A stretch of DNA of 64,000 nucleotides from Candidatus Omnitrophota bacterium (lineage in GTDB: Bacteria > Omnitrophota > Gorgyraeia > Zapsychrales > JANLHA01): positions 10,916-74,915 of the forward strand of contig JBFMEN010000003.1 in NCBI GenBank assembly GCA_040753435.1, written 5' to 3'. This document shows positions 5,426-63,600 of the stretch, one piece after another. Within the stretch, counting starts at the first letter, position 1. Each line of letters begins with the position of its first letter. Both the position numbers and the translations under genes were made by a program. The notes under the pieces are model-generated. The model was given only the letters and a program-made list of their open reading frames with translations, searched no databases and was not told the origin of the DNA.

Positions 5426-8347
5426 ATGAAGAAACTATTAATTTTGATACTTGTGATGATCTTCTCCACACAATATTCTCCCGTGGTATGGGCTGATGTT
5501 GTCGCTTTGACAGATGCCCAGATGGACGAGATTGCTGCGGGGGATTGGGTTATCATCGCCCAGAATGAGGATGTTGTCGATGTATTTGACAACATCAACA
5601 GGCTTGAAGCGGGTGAATCATCACAGCAAGGGCTTAATGGCCTCAGTAACGTGAATGAGGTCAACAGCGCGACTGCCGTTCAGCAGAACGTTTCTGACTC
5701 CAACGAAGGGGTCATGGACATCACAACTCGCAATGAGGCCAGTGTCACGAATTATCAACCAAGAGATGAACTGACCGTGTCGGAGACGCGAACTATTTCA
5801 GCGAGCAGCGAGAATGAAGTCCAGCAAACACAAAGGGCAATTACTTCCGACTCATTGACCGCTTCTGATCGGACAACAGCAACGAATTCGGAAAGCGCCT
5901 CTTTGGAACAGCGGGCTTCAAGCTCATTGAGCACGCTTTCTGACCAGAGCGCGAATGCTTCAGTGAGTTTTGATCAGGACAGCTCTTTAGCGACTTCAAA
6001 CAATGCTTCGAGTGACGCAAGTTTGAGCGCGGTTGATAATTTTCATTTAGAAGATCATGCGGTGAATAATACTTCGGTATCCGCGGAAACCAGCGACGCT
6101 GCATCAAGCAGTGCGTCGTTGGACAGTAACGCTGCTGCGTCTGAAAGGCATACGACTGACCAAAATGCGAATCAGGCAGCTGATGCTTCTCTGGATACAA
6201 GTGCTGCGGCATCTGAAGATCACGCGACAGATCAGGCTGCGAATCAGTCTGCGTCGGCTTCTTTAGATACTAATGCTGCGGCATCTGAAGATCACACGAC
6301 AGATCAGGCTGCGAATCAGTCTGCGTCGGCTTCTTTAGATACGAATGCTGCGGCATCTGAAGATCACACGACAGATCAGGCAGCGAATCAGTCTGCGTCG
6401 GCTTCTTTAGATACGAATGCTGCGGCATCTGAAGATCACACGACAGATCAGGCTGCGAGTCAGTCCGCGTCGGCCTCTTTAGATACGAGTGCTGCGGCAT
6501 CTGAAGATCACACGACAGATCAGGCTGCGAGCCAGTCCGCGTCGGCCTCTTTAGATACGAGTGCTGCGGCATCTGAAGATCACACGACAGATCAGGCTGC
6601 GAATCAGTCTGCGTCGGCTTCTTTAGATACGAATGCTGCGGCATCTGAAGATCACACGACAGATCAGGCTGCCAGCCAGTCAGCTTCGGCAACTCTGGAC
6701 ACCAGTGCGGCTGCTTCGGAAGATCACACCGCGGATCAGACAGCCAGCCAATCGTCATTAACGGCAGTTGATGCCAGCGCTTCGGCTTCTGAAGACCATA
6801 CAACGGATCAGTCTGCTGACCAAAGCTCTGCCTCGACTGTTGATGCGAATCTTGCGGCTTCTGAATCATTTGCTGCCGAAACGGCATCAGATGCTTTTGA
6901 AGGCGATGGAGAAGTGGCATCAACCGCAGATTCGGTTAGTTTTTCTGGAACATATGAAGAGGATAACGGATCGATTGCCCTTGATGGCGATTATGCCGAA
7001 ACACATGCGACAACATCCGATACAAAAACTTATTCAACATCAAGCAGCAGTTCTACTTCTGATACCGCTGCTCTTGATGGTGCCTTGAGTACTGCAAACG
7101 ACAGTTCATCCTCCGCGGATGCATCGACATCGGATGCCGCTCAAGCTCAGGAATCATTAGCGGCTTCACAGGATCAGAATGCTTCGGCTTCGGCATCGAC
7201 AACTGATTCTGCAGCGGCCCAACAATCTCTGACTGCAGCAAGCGATCAGGATGCAGCTGCCCAGGCATCGACAACTGATTCTGCAGCGGCTCAGCAATCC
7301 TTGACTGCGGCAAGCGATCAGGATGCAGCTGCCCAGGCATCAACAACTGATTCTGCAGCGGCTCAGCAATCCTTGACTGCGGCAAGTGATCAGGATGCGG
7401 CGGCCCAGGCATCAACAACTGATTCTGCAGCGGCTCAGCAATCTTTGACTGCGGCAAGCGATCAGGATGCAGCGGCCCAGGCATCGACAACTGATTCGGC
7501 AGCAGCGGAGCAGGCTTTAAGCGCATCAAGCGATCAGGCGGCATCAGCTTCGGCAGCTACAACGGATTCAGCAGCGGCAGAGCAGGGGTTAAGCGCGTCA
7601 AGTGATCAGGCAGCTTCTGCTTCAGCGTCAACGACTGATTCGGCGGCGGCAGAGCAGGGGTTAAGCGCGTCAAGCGATCAGGCAGCTTCTGCTTCAGCGT
7701 CAACGACGGATTCTGCGGCAGCGGAACAGACGTTAAGCGCATCAAGCAGCAATAGCGCATCGGCTTCAGCTTCGACATTAGATGAAGCTGCAGCAAATCA
7801 GTCGCTGTCGACAACGGCTGATACAGCAGAAGATCATACGGCATCCGCCAATCAAGCCGTTGCCCAGAGCAGCGACCTGATCAATGATCATGATCAATCA
7901 GTGGATCAGGCCAGTGCGGATTCAGCCAGCAGTTCATTAGATGAAACGCTAACGGTATCTTTTGATCAGAACGCTTCACAGAATGACGTGGAAACTGTCG
8001 ATGCTGAGGAAGCAACAGAGGTTATTGCAGATTCAAGCAACGATGAGAGCCTTGACACCCAAAGCGATCTGAACACTGTCAGTGAAAGCACTAACGAAGC
8101 TTCTGTAACAACCACGGTAAGTGTCGTCACTTCTGACACGACAAATACAACCATTAATGAAAGCACCGGAAAGAGTGTCAGAAATGTGCTTGTTTTAAGC
8201 GGCGGGGCGCAAAGCGAGATGAACGTGATGAGTAATGTAAACGCCGTCAGTTCAGCCATTGCGGTTCAAACGAATGTTGCGAATGCTAACGGGATTAGCG
8301 GCAGCATCAGTCACACCAATGTGGCAAATGTTGTTAACGGTTTTTAA
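5426..8347 (+). CDS. Secreted repeat protein with Fap-like amyloid motifs at both ends flanking two 24-aa tandem-repeat arrays (FapC-like candidate)
   Basis: 973 aa with signal peptide MKKLLILILVMIFSTQYSPVVWA. It has an N-terminal LTDAQMDEIAAG motif, then LNGLSNVNEVNSATAVQQNVSDSN. Then come about 10 copies of ASASLDTNAAASEDHTTDQAANQS and about 8 copies of ASTTDSAAAQQSLTAASDQDAAAQ. The C-terminus is LSGGAQSEMNVMSNVNAVSSAIAVQTNVANANG..NGF. An RBS lies upstream. Confidence 0.7.
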   Translation: MKKLLILILVMIFSTQYSPVVWADVVALTDAQMDEIAAGDWVIIAQNEDVVDVFDNINRLEAGESSQQGLNGLSNVNEVNSATAVQQNVSDSNEGVMDITTRNEASVTNYQPRDELTVSETRTISASSENEVQQTQRAITSDSLTASDRTTATNSESASLEQRASSSLSTLSDQSANASVSFDQDSSLATSNNASSDASLSAVDNFHLEDHAVNNTSVSAETSDAASSSASLDSNAAASERHTTDQNANQAADASLDTSAAASEDHATDQAANQSASASLDTNAAASEDHTTDQAANQSASASLDTNAAASEDHTTDQAANQSASASLDTNAAASEDHTTDQAASQSASASLDTSAAASEDHTTDQAASQSASASLDTSAAASEDHTTDQAANQSASASLDTNAAASEDHTTDQAASQSASATLDTSAAASEDHTADQTASQSSLTAVDASASASEDHTTDQSADQSSASTVDANLAASESFAAETASDAFEGDGEVASTADSVSFSGTYEEDNGSIALDGDYAETHATTSDTKTYSTSSSSSTSDTAALDGALSTANDSSSSADASTSDAAQAQESLAASQDQNASASASTTDSAAAQQSLTAASDQDAAAQASTTDSAAAQQSLTAASDQDAAAQASTTDSAAAQQSLTAASDQDAAAQASTTDSAAAQQSLTAASDQDAAAQASTTDSAAAEQALSASSDQAASASAATTDSAAAEQGLSASSDQAASASASTTDSAAAEQGLSASSDQAASASASTTDSAAAEQTLSASSSNSASASASTLDEAAANQSLSTTADTAEDHTASANQAVAQSSDLINDHDQSVDQASADSASSSLDETLTVSFDQNASQNDVETVDAEEATEVIADSSNDESLDTQSDLNTVSESTNEASVTTTVSVVTSDTTNTTINESTGKSVRNVLVLSGGAQSEMNVMSNVNAVSSAIAVQTNVANANGISGSISHTNVANVVNGF
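6130..6870 (+). repeat. 72-bp in-frame tandem repeat array, about 10 copies (24-aa unit ASASLDTNAAASEDHTTDQAANQS)
   Basis: Near-identical 72-nt units (gcgaatcagtctgcgtcggcttctttagatacgaatgctgcggcatctgaagatcacacgacagatcaggct) read directly in the sequence. They show occasional synonymous or conservative variants (N/S, N/T). Confidence 0.85.
7170..7740 (+). repeat. Second 72-bp in-frame tandem repeat array, about 8 copies (24-aa unit ASTTDSAAAQQSLTAASDQDAAAQ)
   Basis: Units such as gcatcgacaactgattctgcagcggctcagcaatccttgactgcggcaagcgatcaggatgcagctgcccag are repeated with minor variation. The period is the same as the first array but the unit is unrelated. Confidence 0.85.
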
Positions 8348-8406
8348 CGAGTGTTTTGGGGGAAGGAGACTTCCCCCAAAACTTTTTAAAGAATGTAAGG
8401 TGAGCT

Positions 8407-9690
8407 ATGTATCGGAAAATTATATCTATGATGATTTCAATCTGTCTTTTGTGTTCTCATGGACCGCTTGCATTTGCCAGTTATGCCGTTGTTCTCACCG
8501 ATTATGAATTGGATCAGATTTATGCCCAGGGAGTGGATGTCAGTCCCGGCGATGTTTTAAGTTCAGCGACAGTTGAGACTGCTGCTCTTGAATCAAATCC
8601 TTTTACGGAAAGTGAAAACAATAGCGTAACGTCGGTTCCTGTGACACCGGATAATCCTGTTGGACCGGCAACCCCGGTCCTGCCGGATGGTCCGACCGGC
8701 CCGGTGTTACCTGATGGGCCTTTTCCACCGGAAAGTCCTGTGTTACCAGATGGACCGGTTTTACCGGGTGGCCCTTTTGGTCCGACATCGCCGAATGGTC
8801 CGGTAGTGCCTGACAGTCCGGCGCTTCCGGACGGTCCGTTTGCACCGGGAAGCCCTGTGTTGCCGGACAGTCCTTTTGGTCCGACATCGCCGAATGGTCC
8901 GGTAGTGCCTGACAGTCCGGCGCTTCCGGACAGTCCGTTTGCACCGGGAAGTCCTGTGTTGCCGGACAGTCCTTTTGGTCCGACATCGCCGAATGGTCCG
9001 GTAGTGCCTGACAGTCCGGCGCTTCCGGACAGTCCGTTTGCACCGGGAAGTCCTGTGTTGCCGGACAGTCCTTTTGGTCCGACATCGCCGAATGGTCCGG
9101 TAGTGCCTGGCAGTCCGACGCTTCCGGACGGTCCGTTTGCACCGGGAAGTCCTAACGGGCCGATCAATCCGGTATTACCAACAGGACCTGTTAGTCCCGA
9201 ATTGCCAAATGGACCGTTTGCTCCGAACAGCCCGACTCTGCCAAATGCGCCGGGGAGTGTAACAGCGCCTCAAGCGCCAGCAGCTCCCGGGGAAGTGGCA
9301 TTAGCGGATCCTGTTGCATTAACTCCGGTCGTTCCTTCGGCACCGGGAACGCCGTCTGCTCCAAACGTCCCGGCGGCTCCAAATCCACCTATTCAGCTTG
9401 ATGTTGTCGCGGGGGGAAATGGCGGCGGTTTTCAGGTGGCGTTAAACAACAGCAGCGGTCAGTCTTTGCTGCCGGAATCTTTTACATCAAATGCGCTGGG
9501 AGCGATCAACTCAGTAGATTTGAGCGGGGCGGCCCAGCAGAATCTTTCCGCCATGGTCAATGTGAATGCGGCGGGAAGCGTTGTTCCGGTGATGATCAAT
9601 CTTACGGTATTGATGAATTCCACAGTTGAGAATCTGAGCAATTTCAATGATTTGAATTTGGCAAATTACTCGACCCTGAGAGTCCAGTGA
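8407..9690 (+). CDS. Secreted proline-rich (collagen-like PDSP/PDGP) repeat protein, paralogous at its N- and C-termini to the 5426..8347 product (FapB/C-like candidate)
   Basis: 427 aa with a signal peptide (..CSHGPLAFA). It has an N-terminal VVLTDYELDQIYAQG motif, then four 33-aa repeats (PDSPFGPTSPNGPVVPDSPALPDSPFAPGSPVL). Its C-terminal LSGAAQQNLSAMVNVNAAGSVVPVMINLTV aligns with LSGGAQSEMNVMSNVNAVSSAIAVQTNV of the upstream protein. Confidence 0.7.
   Translation: MYRKIISMMISICLLCSHGPLAFASYAVVLTDYELDQIYAQGVDVSPGDVLSSATVETAALESNPFTESENNSVTSVPVTPDNPVGPATPVLPDGPTGPVLPDGPFPPESPVLPDGPVLPGGPFGPTSPNGPVVPDSPALPDGPFAPGSPVLPDSPFGPTSPNGPVVPDSPALPDSPFAPGSPVLPDSPFGPTSPNGPVVPDSPALPDSPFAPGSPVLPDSPFGPTSPNGPVVPGSPTLPDGPFAPGSPNGPINPVLPTGPVSPELPNGPFAPNSPTLPNAPGSVTAPQAPAAPGEVALADPVALTPVVPSAPGTPSAPNVPAAPNPPIQLDVVAGGNGGGFQVALNNSSGQSLLPESFTSNALGAINSVDLSGAAQQNLSAMVNVNAAGSVVPVMINLTVLMNSTVENLSNFNDLNLANYSTLRVQ
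8750..9150 (+). repeat. 99-bp in-frame tandem repeat, about 4 copies (33-aa Pro-rich unit)
   Basis: The unit ccggacagtccttttggtccgacatcgccgaatggtccggtagtgcctgacagtccggcgcttccggacagtccgtttgcaccgggaagtcctgtgttg is repeated nearly exactly. Confidence 0.85.
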
Positions 9691-9714
9691 TAGTGAAAGG
9701 CCGGTTCGACAGCA

Positions 9715-10431
9715 ATGTCTGAGAAAAGTTGCAGAAAAACAATAAGGATTGACGTTTTAGTTCTTGTGGCCTTGGCGTTGGTCAGCATGTGTTTGTCCGA
9801 TGCCAGGGCCGCAAGTTTTTCGGTCGGCGGCGTCCGTCTTTATAAAAATGTGAAACCTCTGCGGGAAATCAAGCGGAGCAATCTAACTCCTCAGAGTCTG
9901 GATTTCAGCTGCGGGCCTGCCGGTCTTGCGACGCTGTTTCACTATTATTTAAGCGATCCCGTGTCTGAAGCAGAGATTATTACGGCGTTATTACAGACGA
10001 CGTCTTTGGAAAAGGTCAGGGCCCGTGGAGGATTTTCATTATTGGATTTAAAATCGTTTGCCGAACGGCGTGGGTACGTAGCAACAGGTTTTCAAATGGA
10101 TATCAGCGCCCTTCGCCAGTTGGGTAAACCGGTTCTGGTGCCGATTAAGTTTAAAAATTACCGGCACTTTGTCGTTGTTAAAGATGTGGTGAATGACCGT
10201 GTTTTTATTGCCGATCCTGCTTCGGGAAACATGTCATTGAAGACACATCAGTTTGAACGGATATGGTTACATGGAATTGTGCTGTTAATAGAACCATCAG
10301 GAGGCGGGATCCAGAAAAATAACGATTTAGAATTAAAGGAATCCGATCTTATTTTCGCAGATTATTCCCGATGGAGCGCAATCGTAAGGCCAAGTTTAAT
10401 TCGAACCGCAATTTACCCGACGGAGTATTAA
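9715..10431 (+). CDS. Secreted C39-like cysteine peptidase domain protein (FapD-like)
   Basis: 238 aa with a signal peptide (..CLSDARA). QSLDFSCGPAGLATLFHYY matches the Q..x..CG.A.L catalytic-Cys region of peptidase C39 (bacteriocin-processing, double-glycine peptidase) domains. Its size and periplasmic localisation resemble FapD. Confidence 0.7.
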   Translation: MSEKSCRKTIRIDVLVLVALALVSMCLSDARAASFSVGGVRLYKNVKPLREIKRSNLTPQSLDFSCGPAGLATLFHYYLSDPVSEAEIITALLQTTSLEKVRARGGFSLLDLKSFAERRGYVATGFQMDISALRQLGKPVLVPIKFKNYRHFVVVKDVVNDRVFIADPASGNMSLKTHQFERIWLHGIVLLIEPSGGGIQKNNDLELKESDLIFADYSRWSAIVRPSLIRTAIYPTEY

Positions 10432-26936: not shown

Positions 26937-28841
26937 ATGTTTCGTGTCCTTTCGAATGCTCTATTCTTGCCAATGCTGTTGATAATGCTTTCTGGAACGG
27001 CGCTTCCTCTTCCGGAAGAGGAAAAATTGGTCTATGGCGAAGCCACATTTGACCGTTCGGGAAAGGTTTTTACGGTCAATCAGAACAGCAGCCAGCTGAT
27101 CGTTAATTACAATCGTTTCTGGATCGGCAAGTCGGAGACAGTGAGGTTCAATCAGCCCGGTATTTCCAGTGTTGTTTTAAACAGGGTGACTGGTTCAAGC
27201 CCTTCAAATATTTTCGGAACACTCTCCGCCAATGGTCAGGTCTTTCTTGTCAATCCGAACGGGATTGTGTTTGGAAGAAACGCCACGGTTGACGTCGGAG
27301 GACTTGTCGCCTCGACTTTGAAGATTTCCAACGATGATTTTAAAAACGGCAATTATGTTTTTACTGGCCGCAGCGGAACGATCGGGAATTTCGGAACGAT
27401 TCAATCCCGTGCGGGAGGATATGTGGCCCTTTTATCGCCGCAAATAAAAAACGGAGGTTCTGTGGTCGCGACCCTGGGAAGGGTAGTTCTGGCGTCAGGA
27501 GAGAGGATTACCCTTGGTCTCGATTCCGGGAATTTGATCGGTGTCGCCGTTAACGAAGAAGTCACTAAAAGCCTGGCTGCTGCAGATGCCGCCATTGAAA
27601 ATTTCGGCAGTGTTAAATCTGACGGTGGCAAGGTTATTCTGACCGCCAAGACACTTAACACGGTTTTTGATCATGCCATTAATAATGACGGGATCATTGA
27701 AGCAAACGGTTTTGGGGATCACGACGGGGAAATTCTGCTGCTGGCCGACAATGATATTACAGTTGGGGGACGCCTTGAAGCGGCGGGAGATATCCGGATC
27801 ATTTCCACCGAAGGGAACGTCGTGCATCAATTAAGTTTTATCGAAGGCGATTTAAACGGAGATGTGATCACCGGATCCGGTTTTTATGGGTCTGCTGGTA
27901 ACGATTATGTCCTGAAGAACGGAATCATGATCAGCAGTCCCTACGAGACTTTTGATATTTCGGCCGGGAACAATGTGATCATCGGCTCGGATGGAGAGGA
28001 TGCCATCAGTGTTCTTCAATGGGGATATGGGTCAGGAGACCGCGGGTTTAAATTACGGGAGGTCGGTTATTATACTACAGAGAGCGGCAGAATTTTTTAT
28101 CATCCCCTTATGATCAGCGATGATATCGGAAAAGACGGGGCCCTCATGGGGGGCGCTCGCTCGGTTTATGGCGAACCGGGATTTGAATTTTATGTCACGT
28201 TTCTTGATTATATGGCGAAGCCGCTAACCTTTTTTAGTGAAATGGCATTGAACAAGAAAGGGTTGGATCATGAGAACAGGATTGGAGATCAGTCTATTTG
28301 GGAGGATGGCGGCGACAACGATTTTAATGATGCCCAACTTGTTTTTGTGACAGAAACTTTCAAGGTGTCTGCTTCGCCGCAAATTCCCAAACCGCCAGCC
28401 CCGCCTGATCCTCCTGAACCGCCTGATCCTCCCGAACCGCCTGATCCTCCTGAACCGCCTGATCCTCCCGAACCGCCTGATCCTCCCGAACCGCCTGATC
28501 CTCCTGAACCGCCTGATCCCCCTGAACCGCCTGATCCTCCTGAACCGCCTGATCCTCCTGAGCCTCCGGATATTCCAGAAATTCCTGCCGCCGGTTCCGT
28601 TGACTCTTTGCTTCGAAAAGGGAAAGAATATTCGGATAACTTTTCTGTTTATTATGAAATTCTTTTTCCAAGTCAATTCCTGAGTTTTGAACCGGTTGCT
28701 GCAGTCGGACTTTACGCGTATCATCCATTGACTTTGGTGGATGAGAGCGCCTTTGACAATATTAGACTTGATATCGATGCCTATGAATTCGTTGAAGATC
28801 AAATTAGAAAGAAAAGGTTTTCTCCTTATTTTGGAGAATAA
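26937..28841 (+). CDS. TPS-domain (hemagglutination-activity domain) secreted protein with a (PEPPDP)n spacer: a short TpsA-like exoprotein
   Basis: Signal peptide, then NYNRFWIGKSETVRFNQPG..SVVLNRVTGSSPSNIFGTLSANGQVFLVNPNGIVFG. These are the classic NxxGI..N.F..F / NPNGI motifs of two-partner-secretion TpsA N-termini. A beta-helix-like G/N-rich body follows, then 12 copies of PEPPDP and a C-terminal ~90-aa domain. Confidence 0.75.
   Translation: MFRVLSNALFLPMLLIMLSGTALPLPEEEKLVYGEATFDRSGKVFTVNQNSSQLIVNYNRFWIGKSETVRFNQPGISSVVLNRVTGSSPSNIFGTLSANGQVFLVNPNGIVFGRNATVDVGGLVASTLKISNDDFKNGNYVFTGRSGTIGNFGTIQSRAGGYVALLSPQIKNGGSVVATLGRVVLASGERITLGLDSGNLIGVAVNEEVTKSLAAADAAIENFGSVKSDGGKVILTAKTLNTVFDHAINNDGIIEANGFGDHDGEILLLADNDITVGGRLEAAGDIRIISTEGNVVHQLSFIEGDLNGDVITGSGFYGSAGNDYVLKNGIMISSPYETFDISAGNNVIIGSDGEDAISVLQWGYGSGDRGFKLREVGYYTTESGRIFYHPLMISDDIGKDGALMGGARSVYGEPGFEFYVTFLDYMAKPLTFFSEMALNKKGLDHENRIGDQSIWEDGGDNDFNDAQLVFVTETFKVSASPQIPKPPAPPDPPEPPDPPEPPDPPEPPDPPEPPDPPEPPDPPEPPDPPEPPDPPEPPDPPEPPDIPEIPAAGSVDSLLRKGKEYSDNFSVYYEILFPSQFLSFEPVAAVGLYAYHPLTLVDESAFDNIRLDIDAYEFVEDQIRKKRFSPYFGE
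28390..28570 (+). repeat. 18-bp in-frame tandem repeat (ccgcctgatcctcctgaa), about 10-12 copies encoding (PEPPDP)n
   Basis: Read directly in the sequence; third-position variants (cct/ccc) occur between copies. Confidence 0.85.
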
Positions 28842-28920: not shown

Positions 28921-29541
28921 ATGAAAACACGAAAAGTTCTTTTAACCATTTTGATCATCCTTGCCTGTGTGGCGGCCTTTCAATGGGGATGGTTTTTTTA
29001 TCGGTCTTCCAAGGATGATCCGTTTAAAATTAGTTCGAAAAGGGTGAAAGGAACACCCGATGCGGCCGTTAAGATTATTGAATACACGGATTACCGCTGC
29101 AGTTTTTGCTCGGGCGCTTCTAATTGGCTTAACAAGATTATGAGGAAAAACCCCGGATCAATCTATTTAGAAGTTAGGTACTTTCCCTTGCATTTGAATG
29201 ATGGGGCCTTAACGGCTAGGTTCGCCGAGTGCGCGTTACGTCAAAATAAATTCTGGGCTATTCATGACGATTTGATGACTCAGCAATCGAAATGGATAAG
29301 GCTTCCCAATTCAGAATCCTTTTTTCTTGATTTGGCCGTTAAACATCGTTTGGATGTGGGACAGTTGAAAACATGCTGGTCAGATCCGGAGCTTTATGAT
29401 TCCATTATGGATCTTAAGGACCAAGGAAAGGATTTGGGGGTAACGGCAACGCCGACATTTTTTGTGAATGGGAAAATGGCGGTTGGAGTTAATGATTTGA
29501 AGACGGAACTTAACCGTTTATTGGGAACGGAACTTGAATAA
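28921..29541 (+). CDS. DsbA-like thiol:disulfide oxidoreductase (thioredoxin fold), membrane-anchored or secreted
   Basis: An N-terminal TM/signal segment and a CSFC redox motif in the context YTDYRCSFCSGAS. 206 aa. Confidence 0.65.
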   Translation: MKTRKVLLTILIILACVAAFQWGWFFYRSSKDDPFKISSKRVKGTPDAAVKIIEYTDYRCSFCSGASNWLNKIMRKNPGSIYLEVRYFPLHLNDGALTARFAECALRQNKFWAIHDDLMTQQSKWIRLPNSESFFLDLAVKHRLDVGQLKTCWSDPELYDSIMDLKDQGKDLGVTATPTFFVNGKMAVGVNDLKTELNRLLGTELE

Positions 29542-53805: not shown

Positions 53806-56800
53806 TTGAGAAAAATTAACTGTTTAAAATTTCATGCTGCGGGAAAGGCCCTGACCTGTTTTTTGGCTTTTTCCTTTGTGTTTAATCCTGTTATTGGGTA
53901 TGCCCAGATTGGATTAAACCCGTCATCTTCCCCAGTTCTTCCTGTTCCAGGAGCCATGGTTCCTTTGAGCGGCGCTTTTGACCCGGCCATCATCAATGGG
54001 ATAAAGATATTTCCCGATAATCCTTTTCGATTAGAGTTTCTTATTGGTTCAGGACAATCGGAATTGGAAGGGGATGACTTCAGGGAAGAGTCTAAAAAGC
54101 TTGTTCGGTATTTTTTGGCTTCATTGACTGTTCCCGACAAGGAACTCTGGGTCAACTTATCGCCCTATGAAAGAGATCGTATTATACCCGAAGCCTTTGG
54201 TATTACTGAAATGGGCCGGGATTTGCTGGCCCAGGATTATTTATTGAAACAGGTAACGGCTTCGCTGATGTATCCGGACGGGTCTCCAGGCAAAGAATTC
54301 TGGCTCCGGGTTTCCGCGAAGGCTTATGAACAATATGGGGTCACCGATGTTCCCGTTGACCTGTTTAACAGAGTATGGGTCTTGCCCGACAGGGCGGTTG
54401 TTTATGAGCAGGGAGATACTGCTTTTGTGATTGAGAGCCGTTTAAAGGTGATGCTGGATTCGGATTACGAAGCCATGCAGGGTTCCCAAGAGCCCAAGAG
54501 CCCAAGTTCCAAAGAAAAAGATTTTACATGGGCACATGGGCACATGGGCACATGGGAACTTGACTCCGGAGAGCTTTCGAAACAAATCGTTCGCGAGGTC
54601 ATCCTTCCCGAAATCGAACGAGAAGTCAACGAAGGAAAAAATTTCGCCCCGTTGCGCCAGATTTACAATTCAATGATACTCGCCACATGGTTTAAACGAA
54701 GTCTGCGGGAAGGTTTGTTGAACAAAATTTATGTCGGAAAGAACAAGATTGAAGGGGTTGATATTAGTGACAAACAGGCCAAAGAGAAGATCTACCAGCG
54801 GTACCTGGAGGCATTCCAGGAAGGGGTTTATAACCTGGTTAAAGAAGAGTATGATCCTGTTCTAAAAGAGATTGTTCCAAAGAGATACACATCCGGAGGA
54901 ATGGAATTCGGGTTGCGGCTGGATCAAACGGTCAAGAATGTCACCAGTCTGTCTTCAGCGCAGTCCAAAGATTTCGCAATGCTGGTTAAAGACAAGGGGA
55001 TCAGGAAGGTTTCCGTTGATCTGGAAAGGTCCGCAAAGACAATCCCTGCTCTAAGTTATGCTATTTATCAAGATGCGGAATATATCAACGGAAGGATTGA
55101 GGGGGGAAGATTATTTCGTCCGGGAGGGGCAAAAGATATTTTTGAATTACGCGTGCACTTGGACGAAACGCCTTTGGATTTCTCTGGGGTTGTTAAAATG
55201 ATCCTTCCGAAAGACGGAACGTTAACTATGTTCGGAAAGGGATATTGGCAGGGTTGGGAGGAATACCGCGGCGAGCCGGTAATTATTGTTATAAACAACA
55301 GAAACGTGGTTGAAGTTTATAATTCACAAAATCAAAAGATTTTCCCATTCGGAAAAAATATTATTTATCCCGGAGGAACGTACCGGAATGGAAAAGTCAA
55401 TGGAACTCCGTTTAACCCGCATGGAGCAAGGACAAAAGTTACGATTAAAGACTATATCGGTGAAAACCCGGAATTCACCGGTGTTATCCACAGAGTTCAG
55501 CTCAATAATCATGGCGGGTTGCCTTCCATGGAATATCTGGGGGTCAAATGGGCTAATATGAGCGGCTATGAAAACGCCTTTGTTACGATCGTAGTCGAAA
55601 AAGGCCGGGCTACGGCGATCTATGATGCGAGCGGGAAACAGATCTTCCCTTTCCCCCATAATTATGTCCATTTTGGGGCTCAATACAAAGACGGAAAAAT
55701 TACCGGCGGCGTTTTGGCAACCCCGCACGGGATTTCCAGCCGTTACGAATTGAACAAGTTGTTATCAGCCGCGAGAAAAAAAGATCCCGGCATGTCCTGT
55801 GTCGTCGAAAAGGTGCCGCTGAATGATAAAGGAGGGCTGACGTATTTCCTGGGGGTCGGCAAGTATTGGGCAGATAAGGCGGGATACGAAAAGGCCCTTG
55901 TTACGATTGTCGTTACTAACGGAGATGAGATTACGGTTTATGATGAGAGAGGAAAGAAGATTTTCGAAAGACTGCGGAAGGAAGAAAATTTCGTTTACTT
56001 AAATGCTCGATATGAGGAGGGGAAAATCGTCGGAGGCACGCTTCTCAATGAACGGGGAACTTTTGACCGGCGGGAGTTAAATAAAATCGTGGCGCCGCAT
56101 CCCGGGTTTACCGGGGTCATTGACAAGGTCCGCTTGTCGTTTAATGGCGGGTTGGTGAAATTTCTTGGAAAAAATGTTTGGATGGGGATGACGGAATATG
56201 CCTATCAGATGGTCACAGTTGTTATGGCCGATGGGGAAGTGACGGAAGTTTATGACAGGAGCAACGAGCCAATATATCCGTTTAAAGAGAATTTTATATA
56301 CAAAGGCGCCCGTTTGGAGAAAGGGAAAATTATCGGGGGAGAACTTGTCAATCCCCAGGGGTTTCTGGACAAAACGTTTATTGGGAAGTATCTGAATGAA
56401 CCGGAAAATGAGGATTTTACGGGAGTTATTGAGACAAGGCTGCTGTTTGATGGAGGACTTCCCGTGGGTTTAGAGGAACCCGGATGGTCGTTACAGACGG
56501 AATATAAGCATAAATTTGTTTTTATAGTGAAAGAAAAAGGGAAGACAGTCGGAATTTATGATGAGGAAGGAACTAGATTATTTCCTTATGACGCAAATTT
56601 TGTTTATTGGAACGCTGATTTTATTGATCGGGAGATTAAGGGAGGAAAGCTCCTGACCCCGGCAGGGGTGAGAACCCGTAAGAATTTAAATGAACTGCTT
56701 GCTGAATATCCGGATTTTACAGGGATTATTACGAAGCTGCCGTTTCACGATTCAGGACGGCTCGGTCAAGTGAAAGATGGAATCTATCTTGACTATGTTT

Positions 56801-59800
56801 CGGCTATTCGTGGGAAGAAAGTGACGGTTAAGCTTGTCAAGGGAGCGGTTGTCGCGATTTACGATGAACGCGGATTTATGGTGTGGTCGGAAAACCGGGA
56901 GAGCGTCGGATTTGATATTTTGAATAGTCTATGGAAGTCGGGGGACCTTCAAAAGTTACTGGAACTTTTCGGTGAAGAGGGAACAAATCGTCTCTTGTTC
57001 TCTTTTTTTGATGATTTGACGCCGAAAAGTTTGATAGACTTTTTTCGGGATTACAGGAGTTTTGGGGTCCGGAAGAAGTTTCGGAAAAAGAAGTATGAAG
57101 AAACATTGAAGCCTTCGGAAATTGTTAAAAAGCTGGGCGCGATCGGCCTGCTTCAGAAACAATCCTCAAAGGCCGACTTTCAGGAAGTTTTACGGCAGCA
57201 GTTATTTTCGCTTGTCTATAGTTCTATTGTACGGGACTATAAATTCATCGATGCGATCGAAAAGGAGGTTAAGAGGAATTCGTTTGATCCGGTTATTAAA
57301 AATGCTTTTGAAGAGGTTATCCGCACTTACAGAGATCTGGGAAATTTTCATGTTGAAGGGATTCGATCCCCTACTCAATTAAGATTTTATCAAAAGCGCG
57401 GAGTCAAGTTTATTCTGGACGCTAAACGAGTTCTCCTGTCTGATCAATCGGGGTTGGGAAAAACTTTACAGGCCTTGACGGCGGCGGTTAATGCTTATGA
57501 TGGAAAAGGCGGGAAAAAGATTCTTATTATCTGTCCGGACGTATCCATCCGTAATACGTGGATTAAGGATATTCAACGTCATTTAAAAGGTGAACAGAAA
57601 ATTTATGTTGTCGGCAGCAAAGCAGACTTTAATTCGATTAAAAAACGGAACGATGCCAGGGACGCAAGGTTTATTATTGCCAATTATGAGGTTTTAAGAG
57701 GGGAAGATGCCGCCGGTCTCAGGCAGAATATAAAGGATTTGGGGATTGATTTTATTATTGCTGATGAGGGGCACAGGATTAAGAACAATTCCCAGCTGAC
57801 TGAGGCGGTCCAGGAGTTCCACGCTCCGTACCAGGTCCTGATCAGCGCTTCCGCCCAGCAGGGAAGGACGATTGCCAAAATTTTTAACCTGCTGAATTGG
57901 CTTTATCCGGAAAGGTATCCGGACAGAAAGGAATTCTTGCGGAAGTACGGTAATGCTGAGGGATACTGGCAGTTGAAGTCTGAAATGAGAGGCTTTATGC
58001 TGCGGAGACATAAATCAGACGTCCTGGCGGACATGCCGGAAATTAACGTGGAGTTTCTTCCCGTGCAGCTTAAAGGCGAACAACTGCGTTTATATCAAGA
58101 GATTGAGAAGGAGTTTGATGAGATTACTGAATCGGGTGATTATCTGCGAATGGGGGGAGTGATCCTGAATTTGATTCGAGTGGCGCTGGATACAGCCTTG
58201 ATCAGAGATATCTTTTTAAAAGATTTAGACGCTCAGGAAATTATTCCGGTTAAAGTGGGAGGGTATTACGGAAGAGTCGGAGACGTGGAATACAGGTTCT
58301 CCTTTTCATTTAAAGATCCGGTTTTTTCTTATACTGATTCATCAGGGAAGAAATATTCTATGAAGGTGAGGGATGGGGACATTGTTCAGATGGGTGGACG
58401 AACGTATGAAATAGGAATTAAGGAAAGAAAATCGGTTTCAGCGAAGTATGAGGCCCTTGACCGTATGGTCGATGACATTGTCGGTGAAAAAAAAGAAAGC
58501 ATGGTGGTTTTTACCGGCGCGCGAAAGGCTGTTTCTTATTTAAAGCAACGATATGAAAAAGAAGGATACGAAGTGGTCGGCATTGATGGAGATGTCAGCG
58601 CGAAAGCAAGGGAAGATATTCTGAAAAAGTTTAATACGGCCGGGAGACCGATTATCCTTGTTTGTACCTATCAAACATTGGGTGAATCCATTGATATTAC
58701 CGGAGCGCATTACGGGGTCTTGCTGGACAGCCCATGGCTTGACCGCGAACAGATCATGGACCGGCTGCATCGATTGGGGCAGCTGCATGATGTCTTGTTT
58801 ACGATTATTGTTGCAAAAGACACCGTCGATGAACATGTAGAGCAGGTCAATATGGAAAGCGATATGATCAAGAGCATTGTTCTTGATAACCTTAATGTTT
58901 ATAACAGGCAAAAGGAATTGAGCAAAAGATTAATTTTGGAGAAAGTCAGAAATAAAGAACTTTATTCCCAACTTAGAAGATTTCAAGAGAAGGTCCGGTT
59001 AATTGGAAGCGACGTGGAGAAAAAGGCCCGATCGGCAAGACTTTTGACTGAATATAAAAAAGGCAATCTGAGCGTTCTTTACGGAAACCATCGTTTCGCT
59101 GCAGAACTTGAAAATATAAACGGGGAGACCGTTTATCTTGACGGCCTTTTGGAGCTTGTGAATATGGTGAAGGATCTAAGTGCCGATTCAAAGAATGCGT
59201 TAAAAGAATTTTTCATTCAACGTTTTAAAGACGAGAGGCAGAAAGATGTCAGGGTTAAAGATATGATCCTGTGGGATATTTGCAATCAAATTATCCCCGG
59301 TTTTATTAATATCGATTATGACGGAAAATTGGAGTTTATGATTGAATGGGGAACTTATATATTAAGAAGGCTGATCGTTAACCCTGACCTCAGTAAGGAA
59401 GAGTTGATGACAGGATTGGGGGATGAAGCCGGAGACCTTTTTAATGACACCATGCATCTTCTCGACACATCGAATATCCTGAAGTTATTTTCTCTGATGA
59501 CGGTCATCCCTCAATCCTATTATTATGAGGGAGAGCTTCTCAGGTATGAACCGGCGATCTCTGTTTATTACGCGAATGGAAGAATCAGGTACTGGGATCA
59601 ACAGATCGTCGATAACATTGCGCCGGGATGGCAGATCAGCGACGGTGAGATTTATTCGGGAATAGAGGGGATTGAGCGGGAAGGCCGGCGGGTCCGGGCT
59701 CTGGAAGAATCAGAGGAGAAGCGTCTGGCCAATCAGATACGGCTGGGGAACAAGGCGGCGGAAAATCTTCTGGTGCGGGCGTATTTCCGAAATTTGAAAC

Positions 59801-60558
59801 CGATCGCGAAACGGGTCATCGAGAGCGGAAAGCTGGAGAAGGCATTCGGTTTAAAAGTCGCCGGTGTTGTGGATTTGGAAAGCCTGGTTTCCGCCGGGGA
59901 AGAGGCATTGGTAGATTTGATTAATGTCTACTCAGAGCACGAGATCTATTACAATACGCCGCTTAAAGATTTTCTCCGGAAACGGTTGAATCCGAGAATG
60001 TATTCGCTCGGGTTTCAGATAGCGGAAGAGATGTCCAGGTCGGTCGACCCTGAAGAATATTATCGAAGCGAATTGCTGAGCGAAGATCCTGTCGACCCAG
60101 GTAATTTGGAAGTGGGTGAACAAAAGAAAATTTTTGCCGGTCTGCTTGAACGGGAAGGTTTTAGCGATATAGAAGCTGAGATGATCATGCTTTTTGTTTT
60201 TGAAGGTTATTCGGAGAAGGAGTTGCTGGAAGAATACTTTCAAAACGGTTTAAGGGATCCGAGCGAACAGGACATACGGTATGTGGAGAATCTTATTGCC
60301 AGCTTTCAACATAAAATGAATGTTTTGGGCAAGGAAAACCTCCTTAATATTCTTGATGAAGGGCTTCCTGTTGATGAGGATGTGGGAGGTATCAATCTTG
60401 ATCCGGCGATCTTGAATATCGAGACCCGTGGCAGCGGTTTGGAGAAAGGCTTTTCCGATATTGATATGACACTGTTTGACGACTCTTCTTTCGCGGGATT
60501 TATTCCTGTGATTATCGACATTGCTCCTGCGAATTTATCAGGGTTTATAGCAAATTAG
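53806..60558 (+). CDS. Giant (2250 aa) multi-domain protein. It has a signal peptide, a conserved about 370-aa N-terminal domain shared with the downstream paralog, 6-7 novel ~90-aa tandem repeats, an SNF2-family helicase (DEXH ATPase plus helicase-C) and a C-terminal sigma-70/ECF-like region 2 plus region 4 module
   Basis: TTG start. Signal-like ..CFLAFSFVFNPVIGYA. N-terminal domain LVRYFLASLTVPDKELWVNLSPYERDRIIP...TWELDSGELSKQIVREVILPEIEREVNEGKNFAPLRQIYNSMILATWFK. Repeats carry V.V.D..G..I(F/Y)PF..N.VY..A.Y..GKI.GG.L..P.G...R.ELNK.....P.FTGVI.K. SNF2 motifs SDQSGLGKTLQAL (motif I), IIADEGHRIKN (motif II), LLDSPW..EQIMDRLHRLGQ (motif VI). C-terminal LGNKAAENLLVRAYFRNLKPIAKRV (sigma region 2.1-2.2-like) and AEMIMLFVFEGYSEKELLEEYF (region 4-like). 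Confidence 0.85.
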   Translation: MRKINCLKFHAAGKALTCFLAFSFVFNPVIGYAQIGLNPSSSPVLPVPGAMVPLSGAFDPAIINGIKIFPDNPFRLEFLIGSGQSELEGDDFREESKKLVRYFLASLTVPDKELWVNLSPYERDRIIPEAFGITEMGRDLLAQDYLLKQVTASLMYPDGSPGKEFWLRVSAKAYEQYGVTDVPVDLFNRVWVLPDRAVVYEQGDTAFVIESRLKVMLDSDYEAMQGSQEPKSPSSKEKDFTWAHGHMGTWELDSGELSKQIVREVILPEIEREVNEGKNFAPLRQIYNSMILATWFKRSLREGLLNKIYVGKNKIEGVDISDKQAKEKIYQRYLEAFQEGVYNLVKEEYDPVLKEIVPKRYTSGGMEFGLRLDQTVKNVTSLSSAQSKDFAMLVKDKGIRKVSVDLERSAKTIPALSYAIYQDAEYINGRIEGGRLFRPGGAKDIFELRVHLDETPLDFSGVVKMILPKDGTLTMFGKGYWQGWEEYRGEPVIIVINNRNVVEVYNSQNQKIFPFGKNIIYPGGTYRNGKVNGTPFNPHGARTKVTIKDYIGENPEFTGVIHRVQLNNHGGLPSMEYLGVKWANMSGYENAFVTIVVEKGRATAIYDASGKQIFPFPHNYVHFGAQYKDGKITGGVLATPHGISSRYELNKLLSAARKKDPGMSCVVEKVPLNDKGGLTYFLGVGKYWADKAGYEKALVTIVVTNGDEITVYDERGKKIFERLRKEENFVYLNARYEEGKIVGGTLLNERGTFDRRELNKIVAPHPGFTGVIDKVRLSFNGGLVKFLGKNVWMGMTEYAYQMVTVVMADGEVTEVYDRSNEPIYPFKENFIYKGARLEKGKIIGGELVNPQGFLDKTFIGKYLNEPENEDFTGVIETRLLFDGGLPVGLEEPGWSLQTEYKHKFVFIVKEKGKTVGIYDEEGTRLFPYDANFVYWNADFIDREIKGGKLLTPAGVRTRKNLNELLAEYPDFTGIITKLPFHDSGRLGQVKDGIYLDYVSAIRGKKVTVKLVKGAVVAIYDERGFMVWSENRESVGFDILNSLWKSGDLQKLLELFGEEGTNRLLFSFFDDLTPKSLIDFFRDYRSFGVRKKFRKKKYEETLKPSEIVKKLGAIGLLQKQSSKADFQEVLRQQLFSLVYSSIVRDYKFIDAIEKEVKRNSFDPVIKNAFEEVIRTYRDLGNFHVEGIRSPTQLRFYQKRGVKFILDAKRVLLSDQSGLGKTLQALTAAVNAYDGKGGKKILIICPDVSIRNTWIKDIQRHLKGEQKIYVVGSKADFNSIKKRNDARDARFIIANYEVLRGEDAAGLRQNIKDLGIDFIIADEGHRIKNNSQLTEAVQEFHAPYQVLISASAQQGRTIAKIFNLLNWLYPERYPDRKEFLRKYGNAEGYWQLKSEMRGFMLRRHKSDVLADMPEINVEFLPVQLKGEQLRLYQEIEKEFDEITESGDYLRMGGVILNLIRVALDTALIRDIFLKDLDAQEIIPVKVGGYYGRVGDVEYRFSFSFKDPVFSYTDSSGKKYSMKVRDGDIVQMGGRTYEIGIKERKSVSAKYEALDRMVDDIVGEKKESMVVFTGARKAVSYLKQRYEKEGYEVVGIDGDVSAKAREDILKKFNTAGRPIILVCTYQTLGESIDITGAHYGVLLDSPWLDREQIMDRLHRLGQLHDVLFTIIVAKDTVDEHVEQVNMESDMIKSIVLDNLNVYNRQKELSKRLILEKVRNKELYSQLRRFQEKVRLIGSDVEKKARSARLLTEYKKGNLSVLYGNHRFAAELENINGETVYLDGLLELVNMVKDLSADSKNALKEFFIQRFKDERQKDVRVKDMILWDICNQIIPGFINIDYDGKLEFMIEWGTYILRRLIVNPDLSKEELMTGLGDEAGDLFNDTMHLLDTSNILKLFSLMTVIPQSYYYEGELLRYEPAISVYYANGRIRYWDQQIVDNIAPGWQISDGEIYSGIEGIEREGRRVRALEESEEKRLANQIRLGNKAAENLLVRAYFRNLKPIAKRVIESGKLEKAFGLKVAGVVDLESLVSAGEEALVDLINVYSEHEIYYNTPLKDFLRKRLNPRMYSLGFQIAEEMSRSVDPEEYYRSELLSEDPVDPGNLEVGEQKKIFAGLLEREGFSDIEAEMIMLFVFEGYSEKELLEEYFQNGLRDPSEQDIRYVENLIASFQHKMNVLGKENLLNILDEGLPVDEDVGGINLDPAILNIETRGSGLEKGFSDIDMTLFDDSSFAGFIPVIIDIAPANLSGFIAN
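55270..56900 (+). repeat. Six to seven diverged tandem repeats of about 270 bp (~90 aa each) inside the giant gene
   Basis: The recurrent protein pattern (..T.VYD..G..IFPF..NFVY..A.Y..GKI.GG.L..P.G...R.ELNK.....P.FTGVI.KV.L...GGL..) was read from the translation. DNA identity between units is low, so the repeats are ancient. Confidence 0.6.
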
Positions 60559-60639: not shown

Positions 60640-63600
60640 ATGAACCAAACGATTACAAAGAACCATTTCAGTACCTGCATCCGTGTCATTTCCAGCTTTC
60701 TTGTTGTCACATTTCTCACAACGACAGTCTTGCCTCCGGGATACGCCCAGACCATCGGCTTGAGTCTTCCGGTTCCCGGCGCCATGGTCGGTCAGAGCCA
60801 GGCGTTTGTTCCGGCGCTTTTAAAAGGCATGACCGTTTATCCCGATAATCCTTTGCAGTTTGATTTCATTATTGATTCAGGACACGAAAAGCTTAAAGAG
60901 CCGGAGCTTAAAAAAGAATCCGGGCGGCTGGTGAAATATTTTCTGGCTTCGATGACAGTTCCGCAAAATGACCTGTGGGTCAATTTATCGCCGAATGAAA
61001 AAGACCGGATTATTCCGGATGAACTGGGCAAAACCGAACTCGGGCGTGATTTGCTGGCGCAGGATTATATTTTGAAGCAATTGACCGCGACCATGATGTA
61101 TCCGGAGGAAGAGCTGGGCAAAAAATTCTGGGAGCGCGTGCGAAAAATCGCGAAGGAGAAATACGGCATTACTGAAATCCCGACGGATACGTTTAACAAG
61201 GTCTGGATCCTTCCCGAAACAGCCATGGTTTATGAATATGAGAATACAGTTTACATTACTGATGCGCATTTGAAGGTGATGCTCGATAGCGATTACGAAG
61301 CGATGCAGCAGAAGGGTGCCCAGGAGCCCAAGAGCCCAGGTTCCCAAGTAAAAGATTTTACTTGGGCACATGGGAACGTGGGCACATGGGAACTTGATTC
61401 CGGTGAACTTTCGAAACAAGTTATTCGAGAAGTCATCCTTCCCCAAATCGAAAAAGAAGTCAATGAAGGAAAGAACTTCGCCACTCTGCGCCAGATCTAC
61501 CATTCGCTCATTCTCGCCAAGTGGTACAAACAAACCGTAAAGAACAGCATCATGTCGCAGGTCTACATCGATCAGAACAAGACCGCCGGCATCGAGATCA
61601 ATGATCCTGCGATGAAGGAGACGATTTACGACCGCTACATGCAGGCCTACAAAAAAGGTGTGTTCAACTATATCAAGGAAGACTACGACGAGCTGAGCCA
61701 GACGGTTATTCCGCGTCAGTATTTTTCGGGTGGTTTCAAAGACTCGGCCATGGTCGTTGAAAAGTCCGACAACACCTTTAAGGTTGCGAAGAGTGAAGTG
61801 GGGGCGGAATACCGCTCTCGCGTCATTGTCAGGCCGACAGCGGCAGCAATTGTTTTCGATGATGATAAATTTTTTCCTGCTCTTTCCAGGCGTTTTGTTC
61901 ATCTGGTTCTGGCGCCCGTTTCTTTGGCAATTTTAGGGGCGGTTCTTTTTATTGCCGTCCCGGGAGAGAACCTGTCGTTTGCCCAACCCGCATCAAGCCC
62001 GACGGTGGAAGCTGTTTCAGAGATTTCAAAATCACTGGATACAGTTCGCCAGGCGAAGATCGACGTCGCGCAGGATGATTATGGATATGAATATTTAATC
62101 ATTAACTTGTCATTTGCGGCTCCGGAAATAGGCGTTAGAAGGCCGGGCTGGAACGTCATCCCGCTGCAAGACAATAAAGTTTTTAAGACTGATCAGGCGG
62201 TGGATCAGTTGTTGCTCCACAAGAACGATCCCCGGGCCGCGTCAGGAATTCTTGAAGCGGCCGGGTTTAACACCCATGCCATGATGGCAGCGGCAAAACT
62301 TGACGAAAAAGACAGGGCCGGCCTTATTCCGATTCTTCATCAAAATTTAAAAAACAGCAGCGATATTATCGTTGAAGGCGCGCTTAAGGCATTGTCTGAA
62401 TTCGATAGCGCGAGTTTGCGATCAGTGGTGCCGGAGTTGCTTAACTTGCTGAACCGGCATAATCCCGGAATAAGGTTAGAAGTCATGAGTTTGATTTTTT
62501 CCAAGGATCTTCAAACATCCGATCCTGATAAATTTGCTTTGGAACTGGCCAAACTGATGAATACGGAACAAGATCATACTGTTTTAGCGGCCGATTGGCT
62601 CGGAGTCGAAAATTATTCCCGGGCCGAACGTCAGGGGAAAATTCCCCAGGTCATGGAGATTGTCGATTCGCTGGAAAGAGAGACGCGCATCATTGCCGCT
62701 TATATCGCCGGAAAGTTGGGGACGAAAGCAAATGGATCTGTTGACGGCTTGATCAGGAATCTTTCGAGTAAAGATGCCGGTCTTCAGCTGATCTCTGCTC
62801 AAAGTCTCGGGAAAATCGGCCCACTTGCCGAGAAGGCCCTTCCCAAACTTGAGGAGATCATGAATACGGCGGGTTATGAAGCGGAACCAAAAAGGGCGGC
62901 CGGGACGGCTTATAAAAGAATTAAGAATATCCCGCTTGATCCGGGAGAGGATAAGGAGACTTCGCCCAGGACGCTTTCCTTTTTCAAAGAAGACGATCAG
63001 GCGATGCTGGCTGCCGATACGGTTGATCTTAAAGAAGTGCTGGCAATGCTTCCCCGGGAACTCAGGGTTGGCAGAAATTCCCGGCGATCAATAGATTTGC
63101 GTTTAATAAGTCCGGATGAGTGGAATGATTTATATCCGCAAGCGACAAACGGTATTTTGTTTCAGGATTTTCAGTCTTCTAGAGGCGGACAGCCGCAGGG
63201 CGACGGGGTTATGAAAATTTCTATCCGGGACGATGTTACCGCGAAGGCCTTTCTTCAGGAGTTTGCCGGACAGGGGCTGCACCGGCGTCTGGGTCTTGAG
63301 GATGAGGGGCTCTTGAAATTAATTGATGAGGTCAGGACCGAGCCGGATCATATCGCGGATACGTTATTTGTTCTCGATGAGGAAATTCAGGGCGTACGCG
63401 CGGAATTAAAAGGCCATGACCGAAAAAAGAGAGAGACGTACTTGCAGTCCCTGCTTCAACGAAGAGAAGATTTGCGTTTGTCTTTGAAGCGGGCCGTTGA
63501 GAAAGCAACGACCGATCCTCAGATTGTCGTGGCGGTGGATGGATCGGGTTTTGACGATGATCATGACAAAAATGGAGGGGCTGAAAGAATTTATGGAATC

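Follow-up and report, generated by a model that had tools for sequence, protein, structure and literature searches.

SNF2 ATPases of the Snf2/ISWI-like and SSO1653-like kinds share a two-lobe RecA-like core that carries all of the SNF2 motifs. The same core recurs in DrmD, ZorD, DpdE and BrxH of the DISARM, Zorya, Dpd and BREX defence systems, and in RapA, an enzyme without a signal peptide, the SNF2 motor is held on RNA polymerase. Here we analyse a 64,000-nucleotide stretch of contig JBFMEN010000003.1 from a Candidatus Omnitrophota bacterium (assembly GCA_040753435.1; hereafter the window, whose own numbering is used throughout), in which a SNF2 region at 57385-58850 lies inside a single open reading frame (ORF) of 2250 amino acids (aa), running on the + strand from a TTG start at 53806 to 60558. 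Relative to the Snf2/ISWI-like enzymes this protein adds a predicted signal peptide, an N-terminal module (N-module), six repeats, an insertion between the lobes, a sigma-like domain and a C-terminal motif (C-motif); with the four defence proteins it has the SNF2 core in common but not the surrounding domain frame. Our analysis indicates that the SNF2 core is the payload in one lineage of a modular family and not a free-standing cytoplasmic helicase. While the enzyme itself is of a known SNF2 kind, the family frame around it appears to be new. An initial annotation of this DNA had claimed a complete SNF2 ATPase within a giant protein; the modular family frame, a tandem paralogue, lineage-specific repeats and the sigma-70-like domain behind the helicase go beyond it.

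The layout of the family recalls two-partner secretion (TPS) exoproteins, CdiA and polymorphic-toxin-type proteins, which likewise join a conserved N-terminal module, headed by a Sec signal, to repeats and an exchangeable payload, contain few cysteines, and occur as many paralogues per genome, sometimes in tandem. It differs from them in that the N-module is modelled as alpha/beta and not as a beta-helix, the payloads are housekeeping-type enzymes and regulators in place of toxins, a conserved motif follows the payload, and no TpsB-like partner was seen. Membership of the TPS (TpsA) group was rejected since the N-module has no match to PF05860, a model that detects a TPS protein elsewhere in the window (E value 1.5e-37) and therefore works on this genome.

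Long proteins from the same phylum have been surveyed previously (West-Roberts et al. 2023; Nielsen and Lui 2026; bioRxiv 10.1101/2023.11.21.568195; bioRxiv 10.64898/2026.06.07.730766). In these two preprints the proteins have at least 10,000 aa, compared with 2250 aa here, and combine cytoplasm-type enzyme domains (methyltransferase, HATPase_c, phosphoglucomutase (PGM) and starch synthase) with predicted signal peptides or transmembrane helices; a common N-module or C-motif, a sigma-like fusion and cysteine depletion were not found in the portions consulted. Multi-enzyme proteins of this length class with signal peptides or transmembrane helices are also described in a third publication, PMC10066038. 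SNF2 is mentioned neither in the preprints nor in that paper. A full-text literature search returned no paper linking Omnitrophota with SNF2, and no description of the family was found in the literature on Omnitrophota signal peptides, giant proteins or V. archaeovorus; the coverage of both searches is incomplete, and 'undescribed' is accordingly provisional.

The SNF2 ATPase core

Both lobes of the core are recognised by Pfam far above the curated cut-offs: SNF2-rel_dom (PF00176) at aa 1195-1442 (E 3.4e-35, 122 bits against 24.9) and Helicase_C (PF00271) at aa 1547-1658 (E 1e-13, 51.9 bits against 23.5). The peptides from which the initial annotation had deduced a complete ATPase are all in frame, namely SDQSGLGKTLQAL at aa 1212 (nucleotides (nt) 57439-57477), IIADEGHRIKN at aa 1317 (nt 57754-57786), VVFTGARKAVSYL at aa 1567 (nt 58504-58542), ILVCTYQTLGESIDITGAHYGVLLDSPW at aa 1617 (nt 58654-58737) and EQIMDRLHRLGQ at aa 1648 (nt 58747-58782). 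Lobe 1 contains LRFYQ and motifs I (GLGKT), Ia (LIICP), II (DEGH) and III (SASAQQG), while motifs IV (VVFTGA), V (TYQTLGESIDIT) and VI (QIMDRLHRLGQ) are found in lobe 2. The motif I lysine K1219 (nt 57460-57462) and the adjoining T1220 are intact, as are D1320 and E1321 (nt 57763-57768) and H1323 of motif II, and the arginine fingers R1653 (nt 58762-58764) and R1656 (nt 58771-58773) of motif VI. Motif III is atypical, with SASAQQG instead of TGTPxxN, but conserved: the five nearer orthologues keep SASAQ, and the two most divergent have TATP.

The Walker A, DExH and RxxRxGQ residues, including K1219 and E1321, are invariant in seven full-length orthologues (P0002-P0008) even though overall identity is just 24-47%. 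Such invariance points to selection for ATP hydrolysis, and nothing in these positions suggests a pseudo-ATPase. With a complete core and catalytic residues under purifying selection, the active ATP-dependent translocase proposed in the initial annotation is a reasonable reading, and on sequence grounds we predict an intact and active Snf2/ISWI-like double-stranded-DNA translocase core.

Among proteins of solved structure, yeast ISW1 comes nearest in sequence (E 1.1e-28, over both lobes); further relatives in that set are SNF2h, CHD4, ALC1, HELLS/DDM1 and Sulfolobus SSO1653 (E 1.9e-20). Neither of the subfamilies initially put forward for comparison accommodates the protein. RapA is absent from the best 60 solved relatives, and its model (NF003426) yields 37.4 bits against a cut-off of 576, over aa 1206-1380 only; for DISARM DrmD (NF038317) the corresponding figures are 34.7 and 610 bits, and no drmA/B/C or drmMI/MII neighbours are present. 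SNF2 enzymes commonly bear insertions between the lobes, and the one found here has no match in Pfam or NCBIfam.

A family with conserved termini and variable payloads

A BLASTP search gave 2541 matches at E ≤ 1e-5, the best 120 of which were taken as the homologue set, with 119 homologues mapped onto the query. Just seven of the 120 are full-length SNF2 relatives. A further 112, of 1.2-3.8 kaa, align with just ~16% of the query, at 45-60% identity, the regions in common being aa ~14-370 and, in many of them, also aa ~2188-2250. Their payloads are unrelated and of cytoplasmic type, and include phosphoglycerate kinase (PGK), glucose-6-phosphate isomerase, PGM, starch synthase, UbiB/M48, HATPase_c, Ser/Thr kinase with PP2C, S-adenosylmethionine (SAM) methyltransferases, GGDEF, TetR, DnaJ, ankyrin, WD40 and TPR.

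The N-module alignment contains 58 invariant columns. A profile made from it matches 8,300 representatives of 50%-identity clusters (6,696 of them at E ≤ 1e-30), and in these the module is always N-terminal, beginning at residue ~2-76. At least 579 N-module loci are present in species-representative genomes, several per genome, and the best 80 of them all belong to metagenome-assembled genomes whose labels read Omnitrophota/Omnitrophica, Aceula (a genus of the Omnitrophota), 'uncultured Planctomycetales' or, once, 'bacterium'. No match to the module was found in Pfam (even to E 10), in NCBIfam or in a profile search of PDB sequences. Its AlphaFold2 (AF2) model is alpha/beta, with a mean predicted local distance difference test score (pLDDT) of 68 and a predicted template modelling score of 0.68, and has no Foldseek match in the PDB (best E 0.55).

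The C-motif, of about 60 aa, has the consensus GGIDLNP-x~35-GFxPVIxxIxPxxNLPxLLG and is likewise without a match in Pfam, NCBIfam or PDB sequences. A corresponding regular expression is matched in 102 of the 120 N-module proteins, and otherwise solely in the N-truncated fragment P0122. Alone, the motif is predicted to be disordered (AF2 pLDDT 30-39), as would fit a segment that folds on a partner. The query has both of the elements by which we define the family, the N-module after the signal peptide and the C-motif near the C-terminus. An instructive case is P0121 (L082:3943-9360), a complete gene encoding signal peptide, repeats, SNF2 core and sigma-like region while lacking both N-module and C-motif. 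The joint absence links the two modules functionally, and retention of the signal peptide shows that the export signal travels with the payload. In the N-module relatives P0020, P0023, P0075 and P0033 a different, distantly related SNF2 core (~22% identity) is joined to other repeats and to domains of the SAM methyltransferase or phosphoribosyltransferase kind, indicating that SNF2 was recruited as payload more than once. The frame of signal peptide, N-module, variable payload and C-motif thus defines a very large, Omnitrophota-specific and apparently undescribed family.

Signal peptides and cysteine content

The identical public protein, MEW5894246.1 (annotated 'MAG: DEAD/DEAH box helicase [Candidatus Omnitrophota bacterium]'), is modelled from ATG 53956 (M51), 50 codons past TTG 53806, a choice of start that leaves neither the signal peptide nor the family membership apparent. 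The 50 additional codons encode just what the homologues carry at this place: a positive n-region, a 12-residue h-region, the sequence …GYA/Q (the slash marking the predicted cleavage site) and an invariant LPxPG. TTG 53806 is the sole in-frame start able to include the signal peptide, so that the claim of a signal-peptide-bearing giant protein holds given this start only; on that basis the embedding of an SNF2 core in such a protein, noted at the outset as atypical, is real. Signal peptides in the query and its relatives were judged heuristically from charge, hydrophobicity and the -3/-1 residues. In the query, an n-region MRKINCLKFHAAGK is followed by the h-region ALTCFLAFSFVF and then NPVIGYA/Q, without a lipobox cysteine; the positive n-region, hydrophobic h-region and small -3/-1 residues are those expected of a Sec (signal peptidase I) substrate. 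No other segment of the 2250-aa protein is strongly hydrophobic or transmembrane-like. Among relatives with a complete N-terminus, the h-region is strongly hydrophobic in 207 of 211 and followed by xxA/Q in 186, the -3 residue being small in most; across the 211, the stretch preceding the h-region has a median net charge of +3 and the one following it a median of 0.

Cysteine content supports export independently of the signal peptide. Pooled over 165 family proteins of at least 1200 aa it is 0.10%, about a ten-fold depletion, and in the N-module alone 0.03%. The SNF2-lineage orthologues contain 0.24% and the mature query 0.18% (4 cysteines observed where ~22 are expected, Poisson P 3e-6). For comparison, the value is 1.01% in 35 other ORFs of the window, 1.07% in 82 non-family ORFs flanking family loci of other Omnitrophota genomes and 1.08% in 54 generic SNF2 proteins, relative to which the query is about five-fold poorer in cysteine. 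Low cysteine is typical of proteins that cross or leave the envelope, such as autotransporter and TPS passengers, type I substrates, flagellins and S-layer proteins. In our view the depletion is the best argument for an adaptation of the entire protein, with its payload, to export. That the window contains a DsbA-like gene points to an oxidising periplasm.

A sigma-like region behind the helicase

Towards the end of the protein lies a degenerate sigma-70-like region. It is composed of helices resembling regions 1.2/2.1/2.2, a region 2.3-2.4 that aligns weakly, and a helix-turn-helix of region-4 type that is also weakly alignable. Its region 1.2/2.1/2.2-like helices can be aligned with sigma-70 family members of group 1/2 and the extracytoplasmic function group, from which it differs in its position at the end of a 2250-aa protein. 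A profile of eight orthologues searched against the PDB finds SigA at E 1.8e-6, and all of the top 24 matches are sigma factors; the alignment spans sigma regions 1.2-2.2, extending to 2.4 in the case of Thermus SigA. Foldseek comparison of the AF2 model also places sigma factors on top (sigmaS, probability 0.90, E 0.05; then AlgU, sigmaE, SigW and SigC). The Pfam sigma models for region 2 (PF04542) and region 4 (PF04545/PF08281) are not significant.

In our reading of the alignment, the core-binding helices of regions 2.1/2.2 are kept, while the aromatic residues of regions 2.3/2.4 responsible for -10 melting are not conserved. This combination suggests a domain that docks on the RNA polymerase core and not a working sigma factor, and we infer such a role from sequence. 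The proposed logic is the same as that of RapA, except that the tether of RapA is its N-terminal domain and the putative tether here the sigma2-like domain. One orthologue, P0007, has in addition to the degenerate C-terminal region a well-preserved sigma-70-like segment at aa ~790-1010, between N-module and repeats (sigma70-ECF superfamily model, 35 bits; RpoD_Cterm, 2e-09). A search for a stand-alone, cytoplasmic form of the SNF2-sigma cassette yielded, beyond the orthologues, just P0121 and the fragment P0122, followed by generic SNF2 cores (~26% identity).

Possible functions

The interpretation that we favour, tentatively and at somewhat less than an even chance, is that the protein is an exported, possibly host-delivered DNA motor targeting RNA polymerase, its localisation and delivery being deduced from the features above. 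Export via Sec would be followed by handling of the protein by a putative conserved machinery recognising the N-module and C-motif. The site of action would be the cytoplasm of another (host or prey) cell, where the sigma-like domain would dock on the RNA polymerase core (at the beta' clamp helices) while the SNF2 motor would move along DNA, displacing or remodelling transcription complexes. The periplasm lacks the ATP, cofactors and nucleic acid that kinases, PGK, methyltransferases and DNA motors need; since an ATPase or DNA motor would be unable to work there, action is probably in the cytoplasm of the other cell. Action in another cell also fits the lifestyle of the phylum, whose sole cultured member is a predatory epibiont with RNA that has been seen inside prey cells (PMC13153191; PMC10066038), a predatory or parasitic lifestyle being proposed for the phylum in PMC10066038. 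The suggestion of an injected effector, raised in the initial annotation, is thus strengthened at the level of the family by Sec signal, N-module, C-motif and cysteine depletion, while falling short of proof.

A number of observations weigh against this interpretation. No clear Shine-Dalgarno sequence precedes TTG 53806, and in the public annotation the protein begins at M51. The sigma-like segment of the query is marginal when searched alone (RpoD, E 0.029), and no Foldseek match of the region reaches E 1e-3. With neither the N-module nor the C-motif having a recognisable fold or family, their description as a delivery module derives from position and conservation. No secretion or delivery machinery was found, nor any conserved accessory gene within 3 kb upstream at 59 family loci, and cysteine depletion is a sign of extracytoplasmic passage or location, not of injection. 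Glycolytic enzymes and starch synthase would be odd choices of effector; the sigma-like domain would fit a bacterial and not an archaeal RNA polymerase, whereas the prey of the sole relative in culture is an archaeon. The conservation of the SNF2 lineage across divergent Omnitrophota, among housekeeping genes, would also fit a core function in the bacterium's own cell.

Such an own-cell function might be that of a transcription-associated remodeller, for instance membrane-tethered, whose sigma-like domain binds the bacterium's own RNA polymerase. A functional analogue of RapA or HelD, it would recycle or displace stalled complexes by means of the SNF2 motor, with N-module and C-motif acting as scaffold or localisation device. 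The sigma-like domain itself, the intact catalytic motifs of orthologues across divergent Omnitrophota, the housekeeping genes flanking the SNF2 gene and the many relatives whose payloads are typical cytoplasmic enzymes needing ATP, SAM or sugar phosphates all speak for this idea. We nevertheless consider it rather unlikely, because a canonical cleavable Sec signal with positive-inside bias would place the bulk of the protein outside the cytoplasm, there is no further transmembrane segment, a ten-fold cysteine depletion that extends to the SNF2 payload is unexpected in cytoplasmic proteins, and the RapA model scores so far below its cut-off. A further possibility is display at the surface or in the periplasm as a coat or scaffold, the signal peptide and cysteine depletion being similar to those of S-layer, flagellin and autotransporter-type proteins; N-module and C-motif would be assembly elements comparable to the termini of flagellins, which also enclose a variable middle, and the payloads, SNF2 included, would bind extracellular substrates such as extracellular DNA with little or no ATP turnover. 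Roles as coats or adhesins have been proposed for long Omnitrophota proteins (PMC10066038; bioRxiv 10.64898/2026.06.07.730766). Display is less probable again, given that the invariant Walker A lysine, DExH and both arginine fingers indicate selection for ATP hydrolysis, that the sigma-like domain has no known extracellular ligand, and that Pfam detects no adhesin, lectin or dockerin family.

An anti-phage function, the other suggestion of the initial annotation, finds little room among these results. In its favour, were the protein to supply the SNF2 motor in a system of the DISARM, BREX, Zorya or Dpd kind, are PADLOC matches to ZorD (E 3.5e-25), DpdE, DrmD and BrxH and NCBIfam matches to ZorD and DrmD (~1e-9). 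However, the defence models match the generic SNF2 lobes alone and lie far under their cut-offs: ZorD (NF041790) was rejected at 37.1 bits against 1500, with no ZorABC-like neighbours, and DpdE at 17 bits against 500. Methyltransferase, ZorABC, Brx, Drm and Dpd partner genes are absent from the window and from beside two orthologues, and neither the signal peptide nor the family frame belongs to such systems, making a role in defence very improbable.

Returning to delivery, a bolder version of it would extend across the phylum: thousands of cysteine-free, cofactor-dependent enzymes would be delivered into host or prey cells by means of Sec signal, N-module and C-terminal tag, with the present protein combining a sigma mimic and an SNF2 motor to hijack or strip the victim's RNA polymerase. 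This we consider possible, though doubtful. The Omnitrophota are widespread, uncultured, ultra-small bacteria thought to be predators or parasites. A family of 8,300 representatives that combines an export-type frame with payloads dependent on ATP, SAM and DNA would offer a concrete candidate for their effector repertoire and, if borne out, would constitute a new class of effector with a new secretion or targeting signal. Its signature of N-module, C-motif and absence of cysteines makes it searchable, countable and testable. To our knowledge, the coupling of a chromatin-remodeller-type motor to bacterial RNA polymerase, as the SNF2 and sigma-like payload would represent, has not been seen before.

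Other features and genomic neighbourhood

The features of the SNF2 gene and its tandem paralogue are collected in Table 1. Scanned over 287 fetched proteins, a hidden Markov model (HMM) derived from the six repeats finds them, in 3-12 copies, solely in P0001-P0008, P0121 and the query itself. The repeats have no match in Pfam or NCBIfam, and homology to bulb lectins was rejected, the profile match against the PDB being just marginal (E 0.016). The pre-helicase region and the post-helicase domain are also without matches in Pfam and NCBIfam. The latter is confidently modelled (model m1cb37b8c21e8, residues 59-250), with block pLDDT values mostly 56-92 and ~85-92 in the first half, and its YYY.G..L.Y and IAP motifs are invariant.

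Table 1. Features of the SNF2 gene and the adjoining paralogue, in window coordinates
Feature	Residues	Position	Strand	Evidence or remarks
Predicted Sec signal peptide, MRKINCLKFHAAGKALTCFLAFSFVFNPVIGYA/Q	1-33	53806..53904	+	Requires TTG start 53806
Family N-terminal module (~330 aa)	~44-372	53935..54921	+	45-60% identity across Omnitrophota proteins with unrelated payloads
Six tandem ~100-aa repeats, predicted beta-rich	418-1035	55057..56910	+	Self-derived HMM
Basic pre-helicase region, isoelectric point 9.5	1036-1190	56911..57375	+	Orthologue alignment, conserved
SNF2 ATPase lobe 1		57388..58131	+	PF00176, ISW1 alignment, orthologue motif conservation
Inter-lobe insertion (~100 aa)	1443-1546	58132..58443	+	Kept in all orthologues; beta-rich by eye
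SNF2 ATPase lobe 2		58444..58875	+	PF00271, ISW1 alignment, orthologue conservation
Post-helicase alpha/beta domain	~1748-1940	59047..59625	+	AF2 model, orthologue alignment
Degenerate sigma-70-like region	~1955-2185	59668..60360	+	Profile against PDB, Foldseek
Family C-terminal motif, GGINLDP…GFIPVIIDIAPANL…	2194-2250	60385..60555	+	BLASTP C-terminal high-scoring segment pairs
Tandem paralogue with ankyrin/HEAT payload, MEW5894247.1 (= P0012), 1412 aa		60640..64000, past window end	+	tblastn

The tandem paralogue begins 82 nt downstream of the SNF2 gene, its ATG at 60640 preceded by GAGGG, and its N-module, at 60667-61740, is 55% identical to that of the query by tblastn. Tandem arrangement of family genes is seen at 8 of 59 loci elsewhere. 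Within the N-modules of the pair, 222 nt (54479-54700 and 61313-61534) are 84% identical, compared with 71-73% for the remainder, and this stretch covers a loop of the module that is otherwise hypervariable (…EPKSPSSKEKDFTWAHGHMGTWELDSGEL…). The loop consists partly of 8-nt tandem repeats, CCCAAGAG x2.8 and ACATGGGC x3.9, read in three frames and situated in the query at 54485-54506 and 54526-54556; a change in the number of octamers would cause a frameshift. The same loop is present in P0009, on another contig. The shared loop may possibly reflect gene conversion or a slippage-prone insert.

Genes for a TPR protein, an aminotransferase, an RsmE-type methyltransferase and the ankyrin paralogue neighbour the SNF2 gene. 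The two orthologue loci that were compared show no synteny and are flanked by housekeeping genes. Elsewhere in the window, a 634-aa protein encoded at 26937-28841 (+) contains the genuine TPS domain mentioned above and is directly followed by the DsbA-like thioredoxin gene at 28921-29541 (+); among scanned ORFs neighbouring the TPS protein, no TpsB-like transporter was seen. Nearly all long ORFs of the window lie on the + strand. The G+C content, 0.41-0.49 in most of the window, rises to 0.52-0.53 at 6001-10000, a stretch overlapping two long ORFs without a Pfam match (5426-8347, 973 aa, and 8407-9690, 427 aa). All 2-kb bins have a positive GC skew, so that cumulative skew rises monotonically, and the skew peaks at 0.25-0.27 over the SNF2 gene (56-60 kb).

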